DNA of 63,511 nucleotides, filler included, from Candidatus Tectimicrobiota bacterium (GTDB lineage Bacteria > JACPSX01): NCBI GenBank assembly GCA_016193065.1. It is 4 parts of 4 records of this genome, joined end to end, with 100 filler letters (N's around TTAATTAATTAA, not from the genome) between each part and the next. Parts side by side here need not be neighbours in the genome. Positions count along the whole stretch, not along the records: positions 20,782 to 39,686 come from JACPSX010000176.1; 3 more parts are not named here. One strand, given 5' to 3'. Shown one piece after another: positions 20,682 through 56,794 of this stretch (position 1 is the first letter of the stretch; the number at the start of each line of letters is the position of its first letter). The translations under genes and the position numbers were made by a program. The notes under the pieces are model-generated. The model was not told where the DNA came from, did not search any database, and saw only the letters and a program-made list of their open reading frames with translations.

Positions 20682-20781
20682 NNNNNNNNNNNNNNNNNNN
20701 NNNNNNNNNNNNNNNNNNNNNNNNNTTAATTAATTAANNNNNNNNNNNNNNNNNNNNNNNNNNNNNNNNNNNNNNNNNNNN
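20682..20781. other. artificial contig-join linker
   Basis: 100 nt: N-run + TTAATTAATTAA (all-frame stop) + N-run. Confidence 0.97.
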
Positions 20782-32800: not shown

Positions 32801-33334
32801 ATGGGGGAACCCGATCTGGATGCTGCCTTGAGGATGGCGATCAATCGGGAGGTGGTTTCCTTCCTGTACTACGACATCCTGTCCGGGCAGAAGAATTTTC
32901 CGGAGTACCTGCGGCAGGTTTTCAGTTTTCTGGCCGAAGGGGAGCGTGAACATTTGGCGGCGCTCGTCGGGAGCCAGCAGAAACACGGGGGAGGTGCGGG
33001 ATTTGAGGGTCCGGCCGATCTCATAGAGAAGAACCGGGCCTTTGTGCAGGAGAGGGTCCGGGAGGAGGTTGCTGAAGCCATCCGGAAAGGTTATCCTGAA
33101 CCGCGGGAAGTGCTGACGCGGGCGGTGAAGAAAGAACAGCAGTCGGCGCGTTTTTACTCTTTTTACTCGGGCTCCGTGAAGAACCGTGAGGTAAAAGCCT
33201 TCTTCAAAACCTTGCTGCAGGAAGAAAAAGAGCACGTGAAGATCATGAAAGCTCTCCATCTGCTGGTCGAGAAGGGAATCATGGGAGTCAACAACCTAGC
33301 CGACAAGGCCAAGACAAAGAAGGGGTCGAGATGA
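32801..33334 (+). CDS. ferritin-like/rubrerythrin-family di-iron protein
   Basis: two E...Y...ExxH units (EREH, EKEH). Confidence 0.75.
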   Translation: MGEPDLDAALRMAINREVVSFLYYDILSGQKNFPEYLRQVFSFLAEGEREHLAALVGSQQKHGGGAGFEGPADLIEKNRAFVQERVREEVAEAIRKGYPEPREVLTRAVKKEQQSARFYSFYSGSVKNREVKAFFKTLLQEEKEHVKIMKALHLLVEKGIMGVNNLADKAKTKKGSR

Positions 33335-33843
33335 TCCGCAGGTTTTGCAGGGAAATCCTTGACGTCTTTTGGCCCATCTCCAAGGGGATGCGGGTTACCT
33401 TGAAGCACCTGTTCAAGGTGCCGATTACAGTCCAGTATCCGGTGGAAAAACTGAACCTGGCGACCCGGTTCCGGGGCAGGCTATTTAACAAGATGGAGGA
33501 CTGCATCGGCTGCGACAACTGTGCCGTCGTCTGTCCTACGAGTTGCATCTCCATGGACCTGGTGCGCAAGCCCAAGGACGCTCCCAAGGAATTCACCTCC
33601 GACGGCACGGAGATAAAGATCCTGGTGACCCGTTTTGACATCGACCTGACCCGTTGCATGTTCTGCGGCCTCTGCACCATCCCCTGCCCGACGGAGTGCC
33701 TCACCATGAGCGAAGGCTACGAGCATGCGTTTTACGACAAGGAGGAGTGGATTCTGCGCTTTGGCGCCAACACGAAGAATCCGGAACTCCTTGCCCTGGA
33801 TCCCAAGAAGCAAGATGAGAAGGCCGCCGCAATTGCATCCTAA
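33331..33843 (+). CDS. nuoI: NADH-quinone oxidoreductase subunit I-like 2x[4Fe-4S] protein
   Basis: TVQYP, RFRG, CIGCDNCAVVCP, RCMFCGLCTIPCP. Confidence 0.9.
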   Translation: MIRRFCREILDVFWPISKGMRVTLKHLFKVPITVQYPVEKLNLATRFRGRLFNKMEDCIGCDNCAVVCPTSCISMDLVRKPKDAPKEFTSDGTEIKILVTRFDIDLTRCMFCGLCTIPCPTECLTMSEGYEHAFYDKEEWILRFGANTKNPELLALDPKKQDEKAAAIAS

Positions 33844-33867
33844 TCTCTAGAAAGGGGGTGATCGCCT

Positions 33868-34347
33868 GTGGGAATTTTGGAAGGACAGTTTGGCTCGAAC
33901 GCCATTACAACGACAGTGGACAAATTGATCAATTGGGCCCGCAAGTCCTCCCTGTGGCCCATGACTTTTGGGCTGGCGTGCTGAGCAATTGAAATGATGG
34001 CCGCGGGGGCCTCGCGGTTCGATGGTTTTGAGCGCTTCGGAGTCCTGTTCCGGGCCTCGCCGCGACAGTCGGACGTGATGATTGTGGCGGGCTCGGTGAC
34101 TTACAAGATGGCGGAGTTGATTCGCAGGCTGTACGACCAGATGCCTGAGCCCCGCTGGGTGATCTCCATGGGTGCCTGTGCAACGAACGGGGGCCCTTAT
34201 AATTCCTACAGTCATATGCAAGGGGTGGATAAAGTGGTCCCCGTTGACGTGTACGTCGTGGGTTGTCCCCCCAGGCCCGAAGCGCTTATTCACGGTATCA
34301 TGCAACTCCAGAAAAAGATCGAGCAGGAAAAATTGTTGAGGAAGTAG
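33868..34347 (+). CDS. nuoB: NADH-quinone oxidoreductase subunit B with in-frame TGA (probable selenocysteine)
   Basis: RBS AAGGGGGTG, GTG 33868; [20 protein letters not shown](33982)-[31 protein letters not shown]; 159 codons. Confidence 0.9.
33999..34019 (+). promoter_or_regulatory. candidate bacterial SECIS hairpin
   Basis: GG-CCGCG-GG-GGC-CT-CGCGG-TT stem with a G-led apical loop about 23 nt after the TGA. Confidence 0.5.
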
Positions 34348-34817
34348 TGGCATCTGAACCTCAGAAAGAGCAGATCCGCCGCGCCCTGGCTTCTTTCCCC
34401 CGGGAACAGACCTACCTGCTTCCCGCGCTGCAAAAGGTGCAGGAAGAATTGGGCTACCTTCCCCCGTGGGCGCTGGAGACGGTCAGCGAGTATACCCGGG
34501 TGCCCAAAAGTGAGGTGTACGGAGTCGCCACTCATTACCCCGAGCTGCGCTTGCATTGCCCGGGTCGCCGGCATATCCGGGTATGCACCGGGGTTAGCTG
34601 CCGCGTCAATGGCTCCCTCGACGTTCTCCGTGCCCTGTCGGAGGTTTTGGGCGTGCGTTCCGGAGAGACCCGGCAGGACGGTGAGGTGACTCTCGAGGAG
34701 GTCGGATGTTGTTTTGTTTGCTCGGTGGCCCCGGTGGTGGAAGTTGACGGGGTATTCAAGGGACGCGTGCAGTCGTCTGCCGCTGCCTCTATGGTAAACG
34801 AGAGGGGGAGGCCGTAG
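34347..34817 (+). CDS. NuoE/FdsG-like [2Fe-2S] subunit
   Basis: LLPALQKVQEELGYLP, VYGVATHY, CTGVSC, CCFVCSVAP; GTG overlaps the nuoB stop. Confidence 0.9.
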   Translation: MASEPQKEQIRRALASFPREQTYLLPALQKVQEELGYLPPWALETVSEYTRVPKSEVYGVATHYPELRLHCPGRRHIRVCTGVSCRVNGSLDVLRALSEVLGVRSGETRQDGEVTLEEVGCCFVCSVAPVVEVDGVFKGRVQSSAAASMVNERGRP

Positions 34818-34822
34818 GCGCC

Positions 34823-36475
34823 ATGGGAACGCCTCAAGAGCGCTGGCGATTACTACAGGGCCAGGCTCAGGCCCAAGAGCCGCCGGGTACCCGCCTGGCG
34901 GGTGCCCGCCTGGCGGGTGCCCGCCTGCTGGTGGGGGCGGGGAGCTGCGGGCAGGCGGTCGGCGCCCTCGAAGTTGCGGCAGAGCTCCGCGTGGGGCTCG
35001 GGAAGCTCGGACTCCGGGTCCCGGTCGTGGAGGCGGGCTGCACCGGGATGTGCTACGGAGCCGTTCAAGTCACCTTGAACGGTCAGGGGGTTCCCGCCAC
35101 TTACAGTTCCATTACACCGTCTGAGGCTGCTGCTGCGCTGGCGCAGATTTTAAAAAAGGCGCCTCTCTCTTCCCACGAAGCCTTCCTGTGGAATCCGGAT
35201 TCTCAGACTGGACTGCCGGGTCTGCCCTCGATCCCTTTCTTGTGGGGACAGCGCCGGGTTGTCCTGGAACGCTGCGGTCTCGTGGATCCCGGAGATATCC
35301 ATGATGCTTTGCGACATGGGGCATACGGGGCCCTGGCCCGCGCACTTACCGAGATGGATCCTCCTCAGGTCATTGCCGTGGTCAAAGAGTCGGGACTCCT
35401 GGGGAGAGGGGGCGCGTATTTCCCTGCCGCACTGAAGTGGGAAGGCTGCCGGGCCGCGCGGGGCGAACCCAAATATCTCGTGGTGAATGCGGAGGAGGGA
35501 GAGCCCGGGATTTTCAAGGACCGCCATCTCATGGAAGGAGACCCCCACAAGCTCTTGGAGGGGATGCTCATTGCCGCTTATGCAGCCGGGAGCAGCCGTG
35601 GTTTCCTGTTCGTCAACGGGGAGGCCAAGTTGTCCTTCGAGCGCTTGGCCCGGGCGCTGGACCAGGCCCGCAGTCTGGGCCTCATCGGAAAGCGGATTCT
35701 GGGTTCAGACTTCTCCTTTGAGGTGGAGTTGAGGCAGGGAGCCGGTGGCTTTGTCCTGGGCGAAGAGACGGCCCTACTGGAGTGCATTGAGGGACGGCGG
35801 GCCCTGCCTCGCGTGCGGCCTCCGTTCCCCGTCGAATCGGGCCTTTGGGGTCAGCCCACTGTCATCAACAACGTGGAGACTCTGGCCAATGTGCCTGCGG
35901 TCATCGAGCGAGGAGCCAACTGGTTTCAGAGTTTGGGAACAGAAAAGTCCCGGGGAACCAAATTATTTGGTCTGTCCGGGAATGTGGCCCGGCCCGGAAT
36001 TGTCGAGGTGGAACTGGGGCACACCTTGCGGGATCTGATTTTCTCCCTGGGGGGAGGCGTTTCGGGAAAAGCCGGGTTGAAGGCTGTCCTGCTTGGGGGG
36101 CCCTCCGGGAGTCTGGTTCCTCCTCAAGATCTGGATTTGTCTTTGGAACCGAGAGGAAAATTCCCTCTGGGGTCCGGCGGGGTGGTTGCACTTGACGGTT
36201 ATCGCTCGATTCTTGACGTCGTCCACACCCTGATCCGCTTCAATACCGGCGAATCCTGTGGAAAGTGCACCCCGTGCCGGGAAGGGACGGCCCGGCTGTC
36301 AGACATGGTGGCCGGGCTGGAGAAAGGCCGGATGCCCTCTACTGTTTTCGGCGAGCTTGAAAACCTGAGCGAGGTTGTGAGCCTGGCTTCCCTGTGCGGG
36401 TTGGGACAAGCCGCCCCGTATTCCGTCCTGAGCGCTCTCCGATATTTTCCCGAGACCCGCGGAGTTTCTCCCTGA
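34823..36475 (+). CDS. NuoF/FdsB-like FMN/NAD(H)-binding subunit
   Basis: GRGGAYFP, NAEEGEPG, GEETAL, NNVET, ESCGKCTPCREG, LCGLG; N-terminal SCG..GCTGMC domain; no C-terminal ferredoxin domain. Confidence 0.92.
   Translation: MGTPQERWRLLQGQAQAQEPPGTRLAGARLAGARLLVGAGSCGQAVGALEVAAELRVGLGKLGLRVPVVEAGCTGMCYGAVQVTLNGQGVPATYSSITPSEAAAALAQILKKAPLSSHEAFLWNPDSQTGLPGLPSIPFLWGQRRVVLERCGLVDPGDIHDALRHGAYGALARALTEMDPPQVIAVVKESGLLGRGGAYFPAALKWEGCRAARGEPKYLVVNAEEGEPGIFKDRHLMEGDPHKLLEGMLIAAYAAGSSRGFLFVNGEAKLSFERLARALDQARSLGLIGKRILGSDFSFEVELRQGAGGFVLGEETALLECIEGRRALPRVRPPFPVESGLWGQPTVINNVETLANVPAVIERGANWFQSLGTEKSRGTKLFGLSGNVARPGIVEVELGHTLRDLIFSLGGGVSGKAGLKAVLLGGPSGSLVPPQDLDLSLEPRGKFPLGSGGVVALDGYRSILDVVHTLIRFNTGESCGKCTPCREGTARLSDMVAGLEKGRMPSTVFGELENLSEVVSLASLCGLGQAAPYSVLSALRYFPETRGVSP
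34884..34927 (+). repeat. 15-bp in-frame tandem repeat CGGGT(A/G)CCCGCCTGG x3
   Basis: encodes GTRLA-GARLA-GARL near the NuoF-like N-terminus. Confidence 0.85.
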
Positions 36476-36506
36476 GGTCCGGTTGTCGATGAGGGGGATA
36501 CCAGCG

Positions 36507-39169
36507 ATGGCCGGTACGCTGACGATCGATGGTGTTGTCGTCCAGTTCCAGGAAGGGGAAACCGTTCTCGATGCCGTAAACCGGTCCGGAATTTACCTCT
36601 CCCAACTGTGCAAGGAGCCCGAACGTCCGGCCTTGGGCGCCTGCCGCACCTGTCTTGTAGAGATCGAGAGCGTGCGGGGGTTTCCGGCTTCCTGCTCCAC
36701 GCCCTGCCGTCCGGGGATGGTGGTTCGGACCAATTCTCCCGAAGTCGAGAAGATTCGTCGCGGCGTCTTGGAACTCACGCGCGGGATGCTTAGCCCCGGC
36801 GATGGGGAACGCCGGAGGAGCCTCGGCCAGTTTGACCAGGCCATCGAGCACGCCGCAATTCCCCAGGCGTGCTATCAGCCTCTCCACCGCTATCCAGTCG
36901 ACGAAAGCAAATCATTCTTTGTTTTGGACCGGGACCTCTGCATCCTGTGCGGGCGCTGCGTGGATGCCTGCCAGCAAGTGCAGCACATCGGTGCCATTGC
37001 CCTGATTGGCAAGGGACATGNNNNNNNNNNNNNNNNNNNNCTCGGGCTCTGCGCCCGAAGAGGGAAACCGCGCCCGGGTACCCGCACCCAATGGGGTACC
37101 CGGGGTGCCGCCGGGTTGAGACCACCTGCCCGTACTGTGGGGTCGGCTGCGGCATCGTCCTCCAGGTGAATCCTCAAGAGCAGATCTTGGGGATGGTGGA
37201 GGACGTTCCTGAAAATCCTTCCAGCCGGGGAATGCTGTGCGTCAAGGGACGCTTTGGCACCGGGTTTGTCCACCACCCGTCCAGGCTGAAGAAGCCCTTG
37301 ATCCGGAAAGGAGGCTCTCTGGTCGAAGCGAGCTGGGAGGAAGCCCTCGACGTTATCGCTGAGAGGCTAGCCGGCTATCGAGGGGAGGAATTTGCGGCCC
37401 TGGCCTCTGCCAAAGCCACCAACGAAGACGGCTACGTCATGCAGAAGTTTGTCCGGGTGGTCATGGGGACAAACAGCATCGATCACTGCACCCGGCTTTG
37501 CCACGCTCCTTCCGTGGAGGCCATGCTCACTTCATTGGGCAGCGGCGCCACCAGCAACTCCTACATGGATTACGAGGAGGCCGGCTGCCTGATGGTGGTG
37601 GGCTCCGACAGCTCGGCCAACCATCCGGTGATTGCCGTCCGCTTCCGCAAGGCGGTCCAGAAGCATGGTGCGAAGCTGATCGTGGTGAACCCCAAGTGGA
37701 TCGACCTGTGCTCCTACGCCGATCTCTGGCTTCGCCAGAATCCCGGCACCGACGTGGCGCTGTTTAACGGCCTGGCCAGAATCGTGCTGGACGAGGGTTG
37801 GGAGGACCGGGAGTTTATCGAGGGCCGCACCGAGAATTTCGCAGAGTGGAAAGCTTCCCTGGAAGAATACACCTCCCGCAGGGTTTCACGAATCACCGGG
37901 GTTCCTGAGGAAGACTTGCGGGCGGCGGCCCGTTACTATGCCAGACCTGCGCATGGGGGGTCGTGCCTCATTTGGGGGATGGGGATCACGCAGCACATCA
38001 ACGGCACCGCCAATGCCCACGCCCTCCTGAACCTGGCTCTGGTGACGGGCCAGATGGGGAAACCGGCGAGCGGTATTTCTCCCTTGAGGGGCCAGAACAA
38101 CGTGCAAGGGTGCGGGGACGCAGGTTGCATCCCTGATTCTTTGCCGGGCTACCAGCCGGTCGGCAGTCCGGCGGCCCGTGCCAAGTTTGCAGCAAAATGG
38201 GGAGTCCCGATCCCCGAGAGTGAAGGTCTGCGGGTTACGGAAATGGTGGAAGCGGCCATGGCCGGAAAACTCAGGGCCATGTACATCGTCGGCGAAAACC
38301 CGCTGCTCAGCGAGGCGGACCTCCATCACGCCCGCGAAGCTGTCTCCAAACTCGAGTTCCTGGTGGTTCAGGACCTTTTCCTCCATGAGACCGCGGAAAT
38401 CGCCCACGTGGTGCTGCCGGCCTGCTCCTTTGCGGAGAAAGACGGCACGTTCACCAACAGCGAGCGCAGGGTCCAACGGGTGAGGCGGGCGATCGCCCCG
38501 ACCGGGGAGACGCGCCCCGATACGGAAATCATCTGCGAGGTGGCCCGGCGGGTTCTTCAAAAACGGGGCCGCTCTGCCGAGGGGTTCGATTTTGCCGGTC
38601 CTGCCGAGGTCTTCTCGGAGATGGCCTCTCTCGTCCCCTTCCTGGCCGGCATCAATTATCAGCGGCTCGAGAAGGCGGGGATTCAGTGGCCCTGCCCGGC
38701 GCCGGATCACCCGGGGACGCGCTATCTTTACAGCGAAGGGTTTCCCCGGGGGCGGGGGAAATTTGTCCCCGTGTACCAGGGATCTCCGGCGGACGAGCTA
38801 CCGGACGAGGAATATCCGTTGATTCTGAACACGGGCAGGATTCTCTATCACTGGCACGGCGGCACACTGACCCGCAGAGTCGAAGGCCTTCTCGCCCTGG
38901 CCCCACGGCTCGAAGTGGCAATTCACCCGAACGACGCTTCCCGCTACGGCCTCCAGCCGGGAGCGCCTGTCCGTCTCTCCTCGCGGCGGGGAGATCTGAC
39001 CGGTGTGGCGAAAGTCACTGCGGCGGTTCGCGAGGGGGAGGTCTTTGTCCCCTTTGTCCGGATCGAGGAGTCTGCCGCCAATTTTCTCACGAACTCCGCT
39101 CACGACCCTTCTTCACGGATTCCCGAGTACAAGGTGTGTGCCGTGCGCCTCGAGCCCGTCCATCATTGA
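36507..39169 (+). CDS. formate dehydrogenase alpha subunit (FdsA/FdhF-like, Mo/W-bisPGD, Cys ligand); spans N gap 37021-37040
   Basis: N-terminal 2Fe-2S (QLC..GACRTC..SC), CILCGRC, TCPYCGVGC, LCVKGRF, HCTRLCH, LRGQNNVQG, GTFTNSERRVQ, PEYKVCAV. Confidence 0.92.
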
Positions 39170-39181
39170 AAAATTGCGCTG

Positions 39182-39686
39182 ATGCCGCTCCTTGGCGCCC
39201 ACGTTTCCATCGCGGGAGGAATCTACAAAGCCCCGAGTCTGGCCCGCGAAATCGGCTGCCAGTCCATGCAGATCTTCACCCGCAACGCCAGCCAGTGGCA
39301 CGCCGAGCTCGTGAAGCCGGAGGAGATTGCCCCGTTCCGCAAGGCCTTACAGGACACCGGGATTTCACCTGTTCTCGTGCACGATTCCTACCTCATCAAT
39401 CTGGCCTCTCCCGATCCCGACCTGCGCGGGAAATCCATGGCGGCGTTCCGAGCGGAAATGGAGCGCTGCGAAGCTTTGGGGATCTCCGGCCTCGTCACCC
39501 ACCCGGGGGCTCACCGAGGGGCGGGGGAAGACCGAGGGATCGAGCTCTTCGTACAAAGTATGAATCGCCTCTTGCAGGCTCAGCAGGGAGGGCGCGTGAA
39601 AATCCTGCTGGAAATCACCGCCGGGCAAGGGACCTCCCTGGGTTACCGCTTTGAGCATCTGGCTCGCATGATTACGGGTATTGAGG
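39182..39686 (+). CDS. nfo: endonuclease IV (3' truncated at contig end)
   Basis: GAHVSIAGG, QIFT, HDSYLINLAS, HPG, LEITAGQG. Confidence 0.93.
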
Positions 39687-39786
39687 NNNNNNNNNNNNNN
39701 NNNNNNNNNNNNNNNNNNNNNNNNNNNNNNTTAATTAATTAANNNNNNNNNNNNNNNNNNNNNNNNNNNNNNNNNNNNNNNNNNNN
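39687..39786. other. artificial contig-join linker
   Basis: N-run + TTAATTAATTAA + N-run. Confidence 0.97.
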
Positions 39787-40505
39787 TGGTGATCCCCATT
39801 GCCATATCGGTTCACACGGTCGTGTCCTGGGTCTTTGCCATGACGATCCAGCCCATGTGGCACAGCACAATCTTCGGTCCTTACTTTGTGGCCGGGGCCA
39901 TCTTTTCGGGTATTGCCGCGCTCATCATCGCCATGGCCATCATCCGGCGCGCTTATCACCTGGAGGAATATCTCAAACCCATCCACTTCAACAACCTGGG
40001 CACTCTTCTCCTGGTCATGAGCCTACTGTGGTTCTACTTCACGTTTGCCGAATACCTGACCACCTTCTACGGAGGTGAGCCCACGGAGATGACGGTCTTT
40101 AATGCCAAGATAAAGGGGCCCTATGCCCCCTACTTCTGGACCATGGTGATGACCGACTTCGTGATCCCGTTTGCGATCTTATGCAACCGCAAGACCCGCA
40201 CCATTGCGGGAACGGTCGTAGCCTCGGCCTCGGTGACCGTGGGAATGTGGCTGGAACGCTTCACGATCGTGGTGCCTACTTTGGTCAATCCTCGGATCCC
40301 TTTCCCCCGGGGGACCTACTTCCCCACCTGGATTGAGGTCTCCCTGACGGCGGCAGCCTTTGCGATGTTTATTCTTCTCTACATGGTGTTTACCAAGTTC
40401 TTCCCCATTGTCTCCGTGTGGGAAATGGAGGAGGGCAGAGAAGTCGGTGTCGCAGAAACCACCGCGCGGGTGCGCACGTATCTGCCGGGGAAAGCGGAGG
40501 CATAA
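39787..40505 (+). CDS. NrfD/PsrC (ActC-like) membrane subunit, 5' truncated
   Basis: SVHTVVSWVFA..PMWHSTIFGPYFVAGAIFSG, MWLERFTIVV, YFPTWIE. Confidence 0.88.
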
Positions 40506-40506
40506 A

Positions 40507-41112
40507 ATGGAAGAACACCTGGGCAGCAACCTCTCCCGCCTTGGAGCCGAACGGGCCGCCAGCCGCAGCATCGTTTATGGCGCTCTTTCGGCGGCCTTCC
40601 GCCGGCCCGCCTTCGATGCGGTCCTGGACAAACTGGGAAGTTCCGGGATGTTTCTCATCCTGGAAGTGGAGTACAACCGGCTCTTCGTGGGGCCCAACCC
40701 GCCCCGTGTCTACCCGTACGAATCCATGTACCAGGGTCCGGGCGGAGCCGCCATGGGGGAGGCTGCCCTGCACGTTCTTAGCACCTATGCCCTGGAAGGG
40801 CTGTGTCCCGGGGACGTGGAGAAAGATCTGCCCGATCACGTGGCCTTGGAGCTTGAGTTTCTCGCCTACCTTTGTGCCCGGGAAGCGGCTGCCCTGGAAG
40901 AGAGAAACGAGGAAAAGATTTTCCACTACGTGGGCAGGCAGCGCGATTTCATCAAGAATCACCTGGCGCGCTGGGTGTCCCCGTTTTGCCGGGAGATTCT
41001 CCGCGAGACCCAGGAGGATTTTTTCAAGTGTTGGGCAAATTTGCTGGAGAGATTCATCCGCTGGGAGGCCAAGAGACTGGAGGTTCAAGTTCATGGCGAG
41101 AGTCTGGCCTAA
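40507..41112 (+). CDS. TorD/DmsD-family molybdoenzyme maturation chaperone
   Basis: EYNRLFVGP, PYESMY, PDHVALELEFL, HLARW. Confidence 0.88.
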   Translation: MEEHLGSNLSRLGAERAASRSIVYGALSAAFRRPAFDAVLDKLGSSGMFLILEVEYNRLFVGPNPPRVYPYESMYQGPGGAAMGEAALHVLSTYALEGLCPGDVEKDLPDHVALELEFLAYLCAREAAALEERNEEKIFHYVGRQRDFIKNHLARWVSPFCREILRETQEDFFKCWANLLERFIRWEAKRLEVQVHGESLA

Positions 41113-42298
41113 GCTGTTTTTGCCAGTCCTTATTGTGGTTGTGGTGCTCTCGAGCATGAGTGCCCGGGCTCAGGCCCCGGAACCCTCCTTGCCGAGTAAC
41201 CCCCTGGAGGGGCGCAATCTTTACGTCAGCAAGGGTTGCGTGAACTGCCACTCCGTCTGGGGAGAAGGAGGAACCCTCGGGCCCGATCTGGGCCGCGTGG
41301 GCACCGGGCGTAGCGTTCTCCAACTGGCGGGCATTCTCTGGAACCATTCCTTCCGGATCACCGAGCTCATGCGCGAGCGCAAGATGAATCGTCCGAACTT
41401 CACTCCCAAGGAGATGAGCAATCTGGTCTCCTATCTCTACTTTCTCAACTTCTTCGATGAGCCTGGAGATCCCGGGGAAGGAGAGCGGCTTTTCCAGGAG
41501 AAGAGGTGCGCCGCATGTCACACCGTGGGCGGCAAGGGAGGAAAGGTGGGTCCCCCTCTGGACAACTATCGCCGCTACATGTCCTCGATCTTCCTTGCCG
41601 AGTCCATGTGGAATCACGGCCCCGCGATCAGCGCCAAGATGAAGGAGATCGGAGTGCCCCGGCCGGCGCTGGCGGGGGCCGATCTGGCCAACTTGCTGGC
41701 CCACATCCGGGAGCATTCCCGGGCCGAAAGGTCGCAACCCGTTTATATGCTGCCCGGCAATCCGGCCGAAGGCAAAAAGGTCTTTGCCTCCAAAGTCTGC
41801 TCCCAGTGCCATGCGGTTTACGGAGTTGGGGGGAAAGTGGGACCCGACCTGGCGGCAATCAAGTTCAGACGCAGCATCTCCCAGGTGGGGGCCCTGTTTT
41901 GGAATCACGGTCCGCGCATGTGGGACGCTATGAAGGCCCGGGGGGTGGAATTTCCGAAATTTTCCGGCTCTCAGATGTCCGACCTGATTGCCTACCTCTA
42001 CTTCCTGCAATACTACGAGGATCGGGGGGACCTCCGGGTGGGAGCCCGGATCTTCAAGGAAAAGGGGTGCGCGAGCTGCCACAGCATGGCGGGATCTGGA
42101 CCCAAGGTCGGCCCCGATCTGAGCAGAACCAAAGCATTGGACTCCTCGACTCAATGGGCGTCCTCCATGTGGAACCACGAGGGCGTCATGGAAAAGAAAT
42201 CACGAGAACTCTCGACTCCCTGGCCTCGCTTTGATGGGAACGAGATGAGGGACATGGTGGAGTACCTCAAGTCGCTACGGGATGGCGCGCGGAAGTAA
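41093..42298 (+). CDS. tetraheme cytochrome c made of four tandem class-I-like domains
   Basis: signal peptide; CVNCH, CAACH, CSQCH, CASCH, each followed by GP(D/P)L and WNH. Confidence 0.9.
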   Translation: MARVWPKLFLPVLIVVVVLSSMSARAQAPEPSLPSNPLEGRNLYVSKGCVNCHSVWGEGGTLGPDLGRVGTGRSVLQLAGILWNHSFRITELMRERKMNRPNFTPKEMSNLVSYLYFLNFFDEPGDPGEGERLFQEKRCAACHTVGGKGGKVGPPLDNYRRYMSSIFLAESMWNHGPAISAKMKEIGVPRPALAGADLANLLAHIREHSRAERSQPVYMLPGNPAEGKKVFASKVCSQCHAVYGVGGKVGPDLAAIKFRRSISQVGALFWNHGPRMWDAMKARGVEFPKFSGSQMSDLIAYLYFLQYYEDRGDLRVGARIFKEKGCASCHSMAGSGPKVGPDLSRTKALDSSTQWASSMWNHEGVMEKKSRELSTPWPRFDGNEMRDMVEYLKSLRDGARK

Positions 42299-50489: not shown

Positions 50490-52418
50490 GTGCCGGAAAA
50501 GGAGACAATCGCCAAACGGTTTCGGGCAAAGATTCGCGACCTGCGCTGGTTCAGGGAAAACATCCCATGCCTGGCAGCGTGCCCTGTGAAAACCGACGCG
50601 GGCAGGTACGTGCAGTTGATCGCCGAGGGTCGCTATGAGGATTCCTACCGGGTCGCCCGGGCGCCGAACCCGATTGCCTCCGTGTGCGGGCGCACCTGCG
50701 GGGCACCTTGCGAAGATGCCTGCCGGAGAGGGAAAATCGATGAACCCGTGGCCATCCGGCCACTCAAACGCTTTGTCACCGAGCGCTACGGACCTGAATC
50801 TCTGTACCCGCCCCCTTTTGAAGAGTTGTTCCCGCCGGAGGCGGATCTCGGCAGCGAAGTCGATTGGGGCGCTAGATCCCTCATGAAAAGAGGCGGCCCG
50901 GGTGCCTCTTCCCAAAAGGTTGCGGTGGTCGGGGCTGGGCCCGCGAGCCTGGCCTGTGCCCACGACCTGGCCCTCATGGGATACCAGGTGACAGTCTTCG
51001 AAGCCATGGACAAACCGGGGGGGATGATGCGCTATGGGATACCCGAGTACCGCCTCCCCCGGGAGATCATTGATCGCGAAGTTGGAGTCTTGGAATCCCT
51101 CGGCGTTGAGTTTCGCTACCGCACCCCCCTCACGGAGTCTTTTGGCATCGCAGACCTGCGGCGTCTAGGCTACAAGGCGATCTTTCTCGGTGTCGGAGCG
51201 GGCCGCGGCCGGGATCTCAAGATTATTGGGAACGACCTGGACGGCACCATCAAAGCAATTGACTTCCTCCTTAACATCAACCGCGGTTATCGGGTCACGG
51301 TGGGCAGAAAAGTCGTAGTTGTCGGAGGAGGCTTGGTAGCCCTTGATGCAGCCCGAACGGCCATCCGAGCCGCGGCAGGCAAAGTGGCTGAAGAAGAAGT
51401 CGGAGGAACCGCTTTTCGAGTGGCGCTGGATGCGGCCAGAGAGGCGGTGAGACGAGGGGCACTGGAAGTCACCGTGGCCAGCCTTGAATCTCTCGACGAG
51501 ATGCCGGCCATGAAAACCGTGCAGGGCCGGGAAGAGATGGAAATCTCCCAGGGAGAGGGGATTCACTTTCTGCCCTCCTGGGGTCCCAGGCGGGTGATTG
51601 GAAAATCCGGAAAGGTGAGTGCTCTTGAACTCGTGCGCTGCACCCGGGTCTTTGACGAAAACGGACGGTTCAACCCCAGATTCGATGAAAATGAAACCAT
51701 GATGATTGAGACGGAAACATTGATCCTGGCCATCGGCCAAGCCCCCGATCTTTCCTTTTTGCGACCCGAGGATGGGATCAAAGTCAGCCCCGCGGGGACC
51801 ATCGAGGTCAATCCTGAAACCATGGAAACCTCATGTCCCGGCATCTTCGCGGGGGGAGACGGGTCCTTTCCGCCCACCCTGTTGATCACGGTGGCGGCTC
51901 ATGGGAAACGGGCAGCTCTTTCCATTGATGCCTGCTTGAAGAGTCAGCTTCCTGCCAAGCTCGAACTAAAAACTACTGTGGAAGAGATCCCCACGGCCAG
52001 CCACCGCATGGCCCCGCACTACGAAACGATCCCAAGATACATCCCCACGCTCCCCCTGGAGCGCAGGACGGGAATTGCCGAGGTCGAACAGTGCTATTCG
52101 GAAAGCCAGGCCCGCACTCAGGCACAGCGCTGCCTCTATTGCCATATACACCCCATCTACGATAGTGACAAATGCGTCCTGTGCGGGCGCTGCGCCGATA
52201 TCTGCCCCGAATACTGCATTACGTTCGCCCCATTCACGGCGCTGGAACTGGATGCCGACGAGTACCGCAGGGCCCTGGAAGGATGTGGAAGCGGCCCAGG
52301 CGTAGAGCTGACCGCATTCCTCTACGACGAGACCAAATGCATCCGTTGCGGTCTGTGCGCGATCCGTTGCCCTACCGGTGCAATTACTATGGAGCGATTT
52401 AGTTTTCAGGAGGCCTAA
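50490..52418 (+). CDS. GltD/NfnL-family FAD/Fe-S NAD(P)H oxidoreductase with C-terminal 2x[4Fe-4S]
   Basis: [72 protein letters not shown]. Confidence 0.9.
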
Positions 52419-52419
52419 G

Positions 52420-52890
52420 ATGGTCACGATTGCGCGCCGCACAGTCCTGAAGGTGATCGGACAACTCTCCGTTTTTGGCGCCTTTTTGATCCAGATTGGA
52501 GGAGCCGTGAGGGCCTTTATCCCCAATGTCCTTTACGAGCCACCCAAGAAATTTAAAGTCGGCAAACCGGAAGACTACCCGGAGGGGGTTAATTTCGTCC
52601 CAGAGCATAGACTTTTCACTGTGCGCAGCGCCAACGAGTTTGGAATTATTTCTGCCGTTTGTACCCACCTGGGCTGCACGGTACGTTGGGAATCCAAGGT
52701 TCCGGAATTCGAATGTCCCTGTCACGGCAGCCACTTCAGGCCTGACGGGACGGTCATTTCCGGGCCCGCGCCCCGACCGCTCGCCTGGTTTGCCCTCTCC
52801 CTGTCTCCCGATGGATATCTCGTTGTAGATAGATCAGAGCAAGTGGCCAGTACCTACCGTTTTAGCCCACCGGCAAAGGAGAAAGCATGA
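52420..52890 (+). CDS. Rieske [2Fe-2S] protein
   Basis: RR (Tat-like) N-terminus, [19 protein letters not shown]. Confidence 0.93.
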
Positions 52891-54188
52891 AAACCCGGCT
52901 GCTCTCTCTGTGGAGGACTCTGACCTGGAGCTGGACGCCCATCAGTGAGCGCGAGGCGGGAGAGGCAGTGGTACGAAATTTCTGGATCCACTGGTTTCCT
53001 GCCAAGGTAGCTGACCAAAGTTTCAGTTGGAGCTATTCCCTGTGGCTCGGGACCATTTCTCTGGTCCTGTTCTTTATTCTGACCGTGACCGGTTTTCTTC
53101 TGATGTTTTTCTACGTGCCCTCCGTGGAAAGGGCCTATTGGAGCATCAAGGACCTGGATTTTTCCGTGAGTTTTGGCTGGCTTCTACGCAATCAGCACCG
53201 CTGGGCCGCTCACCTCATGGTGGCCACCGTTTTCCTCCACATGGCCCGGGTCTTTTTTACCTGTGCCTATCGGGGGAGGCGGGCCCTGAACTGGCAGGTC
53301 GGGATTACTCTGCTGCTTTCAACACTCCTCCTGTCCTTCACGGGCTATCTTCTTCCCTGGGATCAACTTGCCCTGTGGGCCATCACGGTCGGGACAAACA
53401 TTGCCAAAGAAGCCCCCCTGGTTGGAGATTGGATTTACTTTCTCTTGCTTGGCGGCAACGTGATCGGCCAGGAAACGCTGATCCGCTTCTACGTCTTCCA
53501 CGTTTTTATCATTCCGGGGTTCGTTCTGCTGGCAGTCGCCTATCACATGTGGCGGATTCGCAAAGACGGCGGGCTGGCTGCGCTGGACCGCCTGGAGAGT
53601 AGCGCTGAAATCAAAGAAAAGGCTCCCGTACCCACGAAGACCTACTCCCTCTTCGGGCTGGCCAAGGGGACCTCGGTCCAGGTGAAAGGAGTAGACAAAA
53701 TTGGAGAAGAGAATAGCCTTTTTGCGACCCCCCATCTGCTCCGCCGGATCATGCTTGTCTTTCTTGTGACTTTCACGGCAACTCTTCTCCTGGCCATCTT
53801 TTTCAACGCGCCTCTCGAGGAAGCAGCCAACCCTTCCGTCACGCCAAATCCCGCCAAGGCCCCCTGGTACTTCCTCTGGCTGCAAGAGCTGGTGGCCGAC
53901 ACGACCTTACACCTGGGAAAATATACGATCAGCGGCGGGCTCATTGGGGGCATCCTGATTCCGGGGCTGTTGTTATTGCTGGCGGCACTTTGGCCGTTTC
54001 TTGACAGGAGCTCTCCGCAAAGTTTGGGAGTCTGGTTTCCTCCCGAGCGGCGGACCCAGAACTGGATCTTCGCTGTCATCGTCATCGCAATCATTCTTTT
54101 GATGTACATCGGTGTGGCCATGCGCGGACCCAACTGGAAAATCTACTGGCCTTGGCAAAATTGGCCCCAACTCCCGACACTCCTCTAG
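52887..54188 (+). CDS. cytochrome b (b6-like, fused to a subunit-IV-like domain)
   Basis: [15 protein letters not shown]-x14-H in helix [11 protein letters not shown]. Confidence 0.93.
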
Positions 54189-54224
54189 GTGTCCGGGAAT
54201 GCACACTCACTAAGAGGAAACCCC

Positions 54225-55436
54225 ATGAAACCATTGGACCGCTTTGCGAACCGGGATTTTGTATGGCTTTTTGCCATATCGATTCTCTTCTTCGCGCTGG
54301 TGGCAGCCGCAGTGGGTAGGGAGTATTCCACAGACTGGCGCGAGATCCAGACAAAGTACCGGAAGATGCTGGCGGCAAAAAAAGGGGAAACTGCTGTCAA
54401 GAACTTCCAAATCGATGCAAAGCAACTTTGGATTCCAAGATTGGGACGGGTCGATCGCTGTGTCGCATGTCACCTCTCTTATGAGGAGACGGCCTCTGTC
54501 CCCTCCGACCTTCCCGAACCGTTCAAACCACATCCCGCACTTGCTTATTTGGAACCCCATCGGTTCCCCAATTTTGGCTGCACGACCTGTCACGGAGGTC
54601 AAGGCTTCGCCACCCGAACCCGGGATGCTCACGGGACGGTGGAACACTGGGAGGACCCGCTGATTACCCGAGAGCTGGCTCAGCGCTACGGGCTTACCCG
54701 GCGGGAGTTGATGGAGGCCAAATGCAACTCCTGTCACCGGCAGGATCCGGAGACCCGAGGGATGGACCTCATCAACATGGCCAAACGTCAGATCTCGCAG
54801 AGAGGCTGCACTGGTTGTCATGCCATGGATGGGAAGGGCGGAAATGCAGGCCCCGATTTAACCTATGCGGGCGACAAAAATCCGGAACTCTTGGATTTCT
54901 CCAACGTAGAAGGGGAAAAGACTGCATTGAATTGGCACGTGCAACACTTCAAGGACCCTCAAAAGGTCGTCCCCGGCAGCATCATGCCCAATTTGGGGAT
55001 CCCTGACCGGGAAGCAAAAGCTTTGGCTCTCCTGATGATGAGCTGGAGAAAAGAGAATTTCTCTCCGGAATACGTCTCCAGGCCTCGCCCCGCGGCGGCA
55101 AAAGTCATACCTGCTGCGGCACAAGCACCTTTTCCGCCTCTGAATCCTCAAGCTTCGGAAGCCGCGAAACGGGGACGCGAGACTTTCCAGAACAAGGGCT
55201 GTCGGACCTGTCACTCGGTGGGCGGAGGCCGCATCATCGGCCCCGACCTGCTCGGCGTCTCCCGAAAACGGAGCAAGGAGTGGCTCAGGGCGTGGTTGGG
55301 GGATCCCGCTGCCTTTATTCGCTCCCATCCCGAGCTTAAGAGCTGGCCCGATGAGTTCGGGGGAGTTGTCATGCCGAATCAGAACCTTTCCTCGGAGGAA
55401 ATTTCGGCCCTGGTGGAATTTCTGGGGACCTTGTGA
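54225..55436 (+). CDS. membrane-anchored pentaheme cytochrome c of the Rieske/cytb complex
   Basis: N-terminal TM; CVACH, CTTCH, CNSCH, CTGCH, CRTCH. Confidence 0.9.
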   Translation: MKPLDRFANRDFVWLFAISILFFALVAAAVGREYSTDWREIQTKYRKMLAAKKGETAVKNFQIDAKQLWIPRLGRVDRCVACHLSYEETASVPSDLPEPFKPHPALAYLEPHRFPNFGCTTCHGGQGFATRTRDAHGTVEHWEDPLITRELAQRYGLTRRELMEAKCNSCHRQDPETRGMDLINMAKRQISQRGCTGCHAMDGKGGNAGPDLTYAGDKNPELLDFSNVEGEKTALNWHVQHFKDPQKVVPGSIMPNLGIPDREAKALALLMMSWRKENFSPEYVSRPRPAAAKVIPAAAQAPFPPLNPQASEAAKRGRETFQNKGCRTCHSVGGGRIIGPDLLGVSRKRSKEWLRAWLGDPAAFIRSHPELKSWPDEFGGVVMPNQNLSSEEISALVEFLGTL

Positions 55437-55468
55437 AGAGAAGCGGGAAAACAAGGCCTCGTTAAGAA

Positions 55469-56694
55469 ATGCTCAGGTTAAGATCCCGGAGGTTTCGATG
55501 CATCGTGAGTGACCCCGCTTTCCCAGAAAAAATCAGCCACAAGATCCGCCTCTACCTGATCGTCACATTCTCGGCCGTGGCGTTGACCGGAGCCGTCTCG
55601 ATTATCAGCACCCGCAACATCTTTCTCAGTTCCAAGAAGATCAACAGTCTTAACCAGCACATCAAAATCATGGACCAGTTTCATATCCTCTTCCATCACC
55701 TCATTGACGAGCTCCATCGTGCCATCATCCTCAAGACACTCGATCGGCAGGAGCATATTCGCGATCTGGAACAAGAGCTCAAGGAACAGCTCGTCCGCTA
55801 CCGCGCCGAACACCTGGGGGAAATTCCGTCCCCGGAACAGACGCTTGAGATGACCCTGGTCGAGGAAATCCAGAGATCTACCGCCCAGCTTCTCAGTCTT
55901 TCCGGAAGCATCCAAAAGCTCATTGCCAAGAGACAGAAGATACCCAATGAGCAATTTGGTCTTCTCGACGGCATTGCGCACACGATCCCCCCGGTAAATC
56001 AACAACTCAACGAACTTCACCTAAAAGAGATCCGGGGACTGATCCAAGAGAATACCTCCAGGATGGATATGATTTTCTGGATCTACCTGGGATTCCTCGC
56101 ATTTGGAACCGTTGCGACAGTCCTGGGGATTCGGAAATTCTCGACAGCCATCATTCATCCCCTCCAACTCCTGACATCGGCCACAGTTGAGGTCGGATCC
56201 GGAGCCCAGGGCAAAAGAATCGACGTTGCTTCCAAGGACGAATTCGGTCAACTCTCCCATTTTTTCAATGAAATGCTCGAAACACTTGAAAACCGTGAAC
56301 GTGAACTCAGAGCGTCTCAAAGGGATCTCGCCCGGCACGTGAGGGAACTCGAGGCCTTGCACCGAATCAACGTAGAAATTTCAGGCCTGCTCGATCTAGA
56401 CCAGGTCTTGAAGCTGGTCGTTGAAAAAGCGCGTGAGTTGATGGGGACCGATCTAGCGTCTCTATGTACCCCCGCCGCAGATGGAAACGGATTCACCCCT
56501 CAGACGGTCAGCAGCCCGGAAAGATTATCCGGACTCTTCGAGGCCAACAGACGCTGCACGTTTCAGGAGAGCTCTCATTCCGATCTTCCGGGTCCGGAAT
56601 GCGCAATCCCTCTGGAGTATCGTAGAGCTTACCTATCCGCTCCCTTGAAGCGAGGGGATCATATCGCCGGTGTCCTGTGCGTGGGCTGCAAGTC
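55469..56694 (+). CDS. HAMP/GAF sensor protein, paralog of 46824-48752 (3' truncated)
   Basis: two TM helices, DEFGQL, VVEKAREL, APLKRG..LCVG. Confidence 0.82.
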
Positions 56695-56794
56695 NNNNNN
56701 NNNNNNNNNNNNNNNNNNNNNNNNNNNNNNNNNNNNNNTTAATTAATTAANNNNNNNNNNNNNNNNNNNNNNNNNNNNNNNNNNNNNNNNNNNN
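56695..56794. other. artificial contig-join linker
   Basis: N-run + TTAATTAATTAA + N-run. Confidence 0.97.

Follow-up and report, generated by a model that had tools for sequence, protein, structure and literature searches.

An in-frame TGA at a cluster N2 ligand codon of nuoB, more likely a young nonsense mutation than a selenocysteine codon

Cluster N2, bound by the NuoB/Nqo6/PSST (NDUFS7) subunit of complex I, is ligated by four Cys residues, including a strained tandem pair, according to PMC8042128. No report of selenocysteine (Sec) in NuoB was found in the literature searched. Two reviews, PMC13188914 (2026) and PMC9312934 (2022), contain neither "nuo" nor "complex I" in the text searched, the one entry of this kind being an NqrE-type family, "NADH:ubiquinone oxidoreductase subunit E", although their supplementary family lists may be longer; passages of PMC5109826 and PMC5736913 likewise name no Sec in NuoB. 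The locus considered here is a nuoB gene in which the codon of the second tandem Cys is TGA. A preliminary description had proposed that this TGA encodes Sec and is followed by a SECIS-like hairpin. The gene, its relatives, the hairpin and the surrounding genes are described below and compared with known systems.

The nuoB reading frame and its in-frame TGA

All features described lie on the plus strand of the window, which denotes the whole 63.5-kb stretch of DNA analysed (58% G+C, with nine runs of N). The nuoB frame opens with GTG (33868-33870), 9 nt behind a Shine-Dalgarno-like AGGGGG (33853..33858) that can be read directly in the sequence. Its first 38 codons, from the GTG to the first tandem Cys, are intact (33868..33981). 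TGA follows at 33982..33984, and the frame then remains open for another 120 codons (codons 40-159; 33985..34347 with the stop) up to TAG at 34345-34347, giving 159 codons in total. A JGI relative, 94% identical, likewise begins with V. A plain ORF list breaks the gene at the TGA into 33858..33992 and 33994..34347, and no Shine-Dalgarno-like box is found ahead of ATG 33994.

When the TGA is read through, the product belongs to the NuoB family by profile matches that extend along its full length and exceed the curated cut-offs (Pfam PF01058, 103.3 bits vs 27; NCBIfam NF005012, 254.5 bits vs 116; TIGR01957, 239.2 vs 142.7). Alignment to 11 relatives places the TGA on the second of two invariant Cys (C38 and C39), both of which are C in 11/11 relatives, and the sequence on either side is conserved, the arrangement expected of an in-frame UGA in a selenoprotein gene. 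All other invariant residues of NuoB are present. Cys positions in NuoB number only four (38, 39, 104 and 133) and correspond to the four N2 ligands set out in PMC8042128; in the window 38, 104 and 133 are Cys and 39 is the TGA, leaving three of the four ligand Cys. Beyond the TGA, no further stop or frameshift occurs in nuoB. The preliminary description is therefore borne out as regards the frame: an intact N-terminus with a ribosome-binding site from GTG 33868, a start passed over by the ORF list in favour of 33994, a TGA exactly on the second Cys of the tandem pair, and an undamaged remainder of the gene. Stop codons can be reached by a single base change in nuoB by 57 routes, of which 4 (7%) fall on a ligand Cys.

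Parts of the region 33300-37300 occur in nine public runs, none of them listed as RNA, and four groundwater metagenomes of one study carry 87-94% of the sampled words. The TGA was checked in Logan contigs from three of those four runs and from one run of a second study; contigs lose rare variants, and a minority TGC allele could escape them. Three contigs span nuoB (3070, 3282 and 1675 nt at depths of 23, 12 and 8; three samples, one study) and differ from the window at 0, 2 and 3 positions, respectively, none of them at 33984. At 33984 the second study has 93.5 depth units, 89.8 of them C. The other 3.7 equals exactly the depth of a 332-nt contig with 2 differences from the window, which therefore keeps A at 33984. 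The A>C calls at this position come from short contigs of other organisms passing the 85% threshold. Several strains that differ slightly from each other retain the TGA, in samples labelled 2020 and 2025. A Logan-derived protein of 116 aa, P0124 (3 contigs), is identical to NuoB residues 44-159 of the window and is the same truncated gene call seen again. TGA terminates 21 of the 48 long ORFs of the window and is the commonest ordinary stop there; the genetic code is thus not reassigned. The in-frame TGA in nuoB is genuine and no assembly error. The preliminary description had left room for a TGC-to-TGA error in view of other errors in the assembly; the former does not hold against contigs of four samples from two studies that carry the TGA, and the latter turn out to be runs of N, including a 20-N gap that gives the neighbouring formate dehydrogenase gene an apparent frameshift.

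Relatives, recurrence and the downstream hairpin

The nearest relatives, 93-94% identical to the NuoB of the window, are Cys-Cys. The 90% protein cluster contains four full-length variants with both Cys (P0002, P0122, P0123 and P0125; 20 contigs in all) together with the single 116-aa form P0124. A search with the 116-aa part gave 120 best cluster representatives, not one of them 116-120 aa in length: apart from a single partial of 130 aa, all measure 152-182 aa. A stop at either tandem Cys is found in none of 163 motifs in 160 loci among the matches listed. Second-Cys TGA is equally absent (0/702) from genomes sampled from two phyla, neither known as the window's own, comprising 401 from the phylum of a Geobacteraceae MAG (G004) and 301 from that of a Nitrospiraceae MAG (G003). 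The pattern used on these genomes catches TGA at either Cys; besides the first-Cys cases described below it made a single chance match, and reversed as a control it made none. Scans of genomes and metagenome contigs with NuoB recovered relatives 60-71% identical among the matches listed. In the phylum of G001 (61 genomes, a tally that takes in the unpublished G051, G062 and G033) the best identity is 71%, G051 being among those at this value, and in the phylum of G002 (41 genomes) there is no NuoB match at E <= 1e-66. Named protein matches at 70-76% are labelled Nitrospinota, Tectomicrobia, Binatia, Acidobacteriota and others.

Judged by the sequences searched, the TGA appears to be confined to one species-level lineage and to be a singleton. 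The homologs with TGA at the second Cys that the selenocysteine proposal called for did not appear: the UGA was not found in orthologs of the other lineages searched, namely the 163 motifs, the 702 genomes and the 120 nearest cluster representatives, none of which is truncated there. The pattern is that of a young nonsense pseudogene, with a stop confirmed in DNA, intact close relatives and a stop that is not conserved. As to relaxed selection, nuoB has no further lesions, and the three long contigs are identical within it, which is too little variation to judge. A distant Oxidored_q6 homolog elsewhere (G025:C73:194376-194726; 41% identical, hydrogenase-small-subunit-like) contains one in-frame TGA.

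The first tandem Cys of NuoB presents a different picture. TGA occurs there in 32 of the 702 genomes, in both phyla (8/401 in the phylum of G004 and 24/301 in that of G003). In all 20 loci examined from these 32 genomes (L165-L172 and L174-L185) the frame is open through the TGA. In 18/20 the loop of a downstream hairpin begins 22-25 nt past the UGA; the hairpins range from -5.4 to -14.9 kcal/mol, with loops CGGGN, GGA, AGGU or GUU. Their stems are built at the same place from three codon sets (TT..SS, AA..SS and AA..A[AS]), and the altered peptides after the TGA, TTGSSH, AAGSSH and AAGA[AS]H, are used to build them. SelB scores above cut-off in 5/5 first-Cys TGA genomes tested vs 2/14 control genomes. 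Sec on an N2 ligand is credible in these lineages.

The stem with a G-led loop reported downstream of the second-Cys TGA is present, its CCGCG/CGCGG core lying at 34001-34005 with 34013-34017. RNAfold lengthens it to 9 bp, three of them G-U pairs, between 33999-34007 and 34011-34019 (hairpin 33999..34019), with a loop GGC that begins 23 nt past the UGA; the hairpin can be extended to 33989-34031, at -15.7 kcal/mol. Candidates had to have at least 4 bp in the stem, an apical loop lying 16-37 nt past the UGA and a G as one of the first two bases of that loop; these criteria, which follow the bSECISearch description, are permissive. The hairpin fits them, but so good a structure at this place is also found in 17/163 Cys-type nuoB genes (6/80 when matched for GC) and in 76/300 synonymous recodings with the codon usage of the window, and 75/200 shuffles fold as well (z = -0.21). 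It is SECIS-compatible and lies at a SECIS-like distance, but it is not distinctive against the null. Just past the tandem-Cys codons, 51% of the 163 Cys-type genes (L001-L160) reach -7.5 kcal/mol. The codons of M-A-A-G-A-S-R are semi-palindromic in themselves, and about half of ordinary nuoB genes fold a hairpin there because the codons of M-A-x-G-x-S-R are so; this may predispose the site to Cys-to-Sec switches. Rfam gave no match at gathering level over the window and, at E <= 10, only chance miRNA and frameshift-site matches around the TGA. The peptide past the TGA is the ordinary Cys-type AAGASRF. The sole lineage-unique residue beyond the TGA, F51 (W in four cluster relatives), adds a G-U pair at the foot of the stem.

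The gene neighbourhood

Co-directional genes for superoxide dismutase (30911), GTP cyclohydrolase I (31551), a short-chain dehydrogenase (32096) and a rubrerythrin-domain protein (32801) lead to a nuoI-like gene for a 2x[4Fe-4S] subunit (33331..33843; Fer4 families), which is directly upstream of nuoB. Its matches to NF004537 (1.3e-32) and TIGR01971 (2e-30) are both under their cut-offs. Behind nuoB follow a gene for a NuoE/FdsG/HoxE-like [2Fe-2S] subunit (34350..34817; PF01257, 6.3e-37) and one for a NuoF/FdsB-like FMN and [4Fe-4S] subunit (34823..36475; PF01512 and PF10589; TIGR01959, 8.3e-125). The last gene (36483..39169; TIGR01591, 735 bits vs a cut-off of 666) fuses a HoxU/NuoG-type Fe-S N-terminus to a Cys-type formate dehydrogenase alpha subunit (FdhA). 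It contains a 20-N gap (37021-37040) which, by the contigs that bridge the joint 37020/37041, stands for 84 bases. Contigs of four runs have 84-88 letters in place of the 20 N, with a net gain of 64 in three runs, i.e. +1 frame. As the gap shifts the frame by one, the ORFs 36483-37169 and 36869-39169 are one gene of about 917 codons without a frameshift. The FdhA part matches solved formate dehydrogenase chains, including Fds-type alpha subunits, at E = 1e-146 to 1e-184, and its Sec/Cys active-site position is Cys, aligned to X of 9t1s_L and to C of 7qv7_S.

The cluster 33331-39169 groups every Fe-S-bearing subunit of the complex I peripheral arm, FdhA standing in for NuoG. None of nuoA, C, D, H and J-N is found among the annotated ORFs of the window, so that NuoB does not stand alongside NuoD/NuoC and membrane subunits there. 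One possibility is that the cluster serves as the formate/NADH input module of a complex I whose genes lie elsewhere. Since 5/7 strain differences in nuoE and nuoF fall at third codon positions, the cluster appears to be still under selection. No tRNA was found in the window and no selA, selB or selD among its annotated ORFs. Other in-frame TGAs with open flanks are many in off-frame or intergenic positions of the window, and none lies inside an annotated gene.

Some further features were observed. A truncated nfo (39182-39742) follows the cluster. Farther on, 39789-42298 encodes a multihaem cytochrome c and its NrfD-like partner, and 52378-56746 an alternative bc-type complex formed, in a row, by a Rieske protein, a cytochrome b6-like/ExtP-like protein whose C-terminus is ExtQ-like, and c-type cytochromes. 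Paired 44-N runs with 12 bases between them occur at 20682-20781, 39687-39786 and 56695-56794; they are regular, unlike ordinary scaffold gaps, and one such pair cuts the 3' end of nfo. Among the loci collected from other genomes, L173 (G015:C144) likewise has its complex I genes split: the operon runs nuoA-B-E-F-H-J-(K)-L, lacks nuoC, D, G and I, and directly follows nuoL-M-N of another set and atpB.

Readings of the TGA and comparison with known systems

The TGA is probably a young nonsense mutation in nuoB, which is more likely than that it is a selenocysteine codon. A Cys codon would have become TGA by a genuine base change, now population-wide, in one species-level lineage of an uncultured groundwater bacterium. 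The TGA would most likely be read as a stop, with translation ending after 38 residues, and this copy would supply no N2-binding NuoB; at most, rare read-through or re-initiation at Met43/44 could yield a protein without the tandem-Cys ligands. The gene would then be a young pseudogene or crippled allele inside a still-selected cluster, and its loss would presumably be tolerated by the organism, for example through another nuoB copy or because the complex is dispensable. NuoE, NuoF and FdhA could work as an NAD-linked formate dehydrogenase without NuoB, which would explain the intact cluster.

A nonsense mutation is favoured by the species-level singleton itself, since Cys in the close relatives and in all outgroups is the normal pattern for such a mutation and a rare one for a true Sec codon. 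The same reading is supported by the Cys-Cys relatives, with no other interrupted lineage, by a hairpin at null level, by the ordinary AAGASRF peptide, by the Cys-type FdhA, by the lack of a tRNA or Sec gene in the window, and by TGA as the end of 21/48 ORFs. Contrary to it, a random stop falls on a ligand Cys by only 4/57 routes, a stable hairpin with a GG-containing loop stands at the spacing seen in first-Cys TGA genes, and the TGA is kept across strains with no further damage in a cluster under selection. Sec at another N2 ligand in other bacteria and the G-U pair added by F51 also run against it.

That the TGA is a Sec codon, with SelB binding the hairpin 33999-34019 and Sec serving as the second tandem N2 ligand, is possible but doubtful. 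The exact coincidence of the TGA with a metal-ligand Cys, between conserved flanks, argues for it, as do its fixation as real DNA across samples, the selected appearance of the neighbouring genes, and a hairpin that shares its spacing and GG loop with the first-Cys TGA genes while being more stable than all 20. The family also offers a precedent in the first-Cys TGA of 32/702 genomes, open in 20/20 loci and accompanied by SelB in 5/5 genomes vs 2/14 controls, and switches should be easy at a site where a hairpin is already in place in about half of ordinary nuoB genes. Such a Sec codon would be a young Cys-to-Sec switch exploiting a hairpin already encoded by ordinary AAGASR codons, a course of events that we likewise hold to be unlikely; with a hairpin of SECIS grade already formed by these codons at a suitable spacing, decoding could, in a Sec-using bacterium, have begun at once. 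Against Sec stand the singleton with its Cys-type relatives at 93-94% identity and no truncation in the 120 nearest clusters, the complete lack of second-Cys TGA in 163 motifs and 702 genomes, a hairpin no better than null, a downstream peptide without SECIS-type remodelling, and the absence of Sec machinery from the 63.5-kb window. FdhA is the commonest bacterial selenoprotein, and its Cys-type form next to nuoB makes Sec use by the organism slightly less likely.

A leaky stop is improbable. UGA is the leakiest bacterial stop, and either low-level read-through by a near-cognate tRNA for Trp or Cys or a restart at ATG 33994/33997 would yield some NuoB and leave nuoB a tolerated hypomorph, in keeping with a gene and cluster that are otherwise intact; but ATG 33994 has no Shine-Dalgarno-like box, and by the N2 ligation described in PMC8042128 neither Trp at the ligand position nor a protein started at Met43/44 without the tandem Cys should bind N2. 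A misread TGC or TGT, or TGA as a sense codon throughout the organism, is barely conceivable even with nine runs of N in the window, as the per-run assemblies of four samples from two studies all keep the TGA and TGA ends 21/48 long ORFs.

If the TGA is only a stop, the locus is an ordinary young pseudogene and a caution for selenoprotein calling: the replacement of a ligand Cys codon by an in-frame TGA, with a hairpin behind it, does not suffice to call a selenoprotein, and in nuoB this combination is a weak criterion because about half of the ordinary genes fold a hairpin there. If it encodes Sec, selenium would occupy a further ligand position of N2, the cluster handing electrons to quinone, and the gene would offer a rare snapshot, soon after birth, of a Cys codon turning Sec and a model for how the first-Cys Sec-NuoB lineages could have started. 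Novelty here is limited to the second-Cys position, if it is decoded, and the best reading is an ordinary premature stop. Independently of the window gene, first-Cys TGA in NuoB is common in two phyla, with a hairpin at fixed distance and with SelB in 5/5 genomes tested.

Compared with canonical Cys-type NuoB, the product of the window gene is alike in being 60-74% identical to proteins of many phyla among the matches listed; unlike them, it has TGA for the second tandem Cys, and its gene is flanked by nuoI-like and nuoE/F/FdhA genes instead of nuoA and nuoC/D. With FdsABG and Hox-type diaphorases the cluster shares NuoE-like, NuoF-like and Fe-S::FdhA genes in a row, but it has NuoB and NuoI-like genes in front. 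The first-Cys TGA NuoB, 54-63% identical to that of the window, is the same protein with the same N2 ligand motif, and its hairpin occupies the same place in the gene, with a GG-containing loop 22-25 nt past the UGA. The window gene falls outside that group: the TGA there is one codon earlier, old and conserved across many diverged genomes, and the peptide is remodelled (G-S-S-H or G-A-[AS]-H), whereas the window gene has its TGA at the second Cys, keeps the canonical AAGASRF, and carries a hairpin (-15.7 kcal/mol) more stable than any of the 20.
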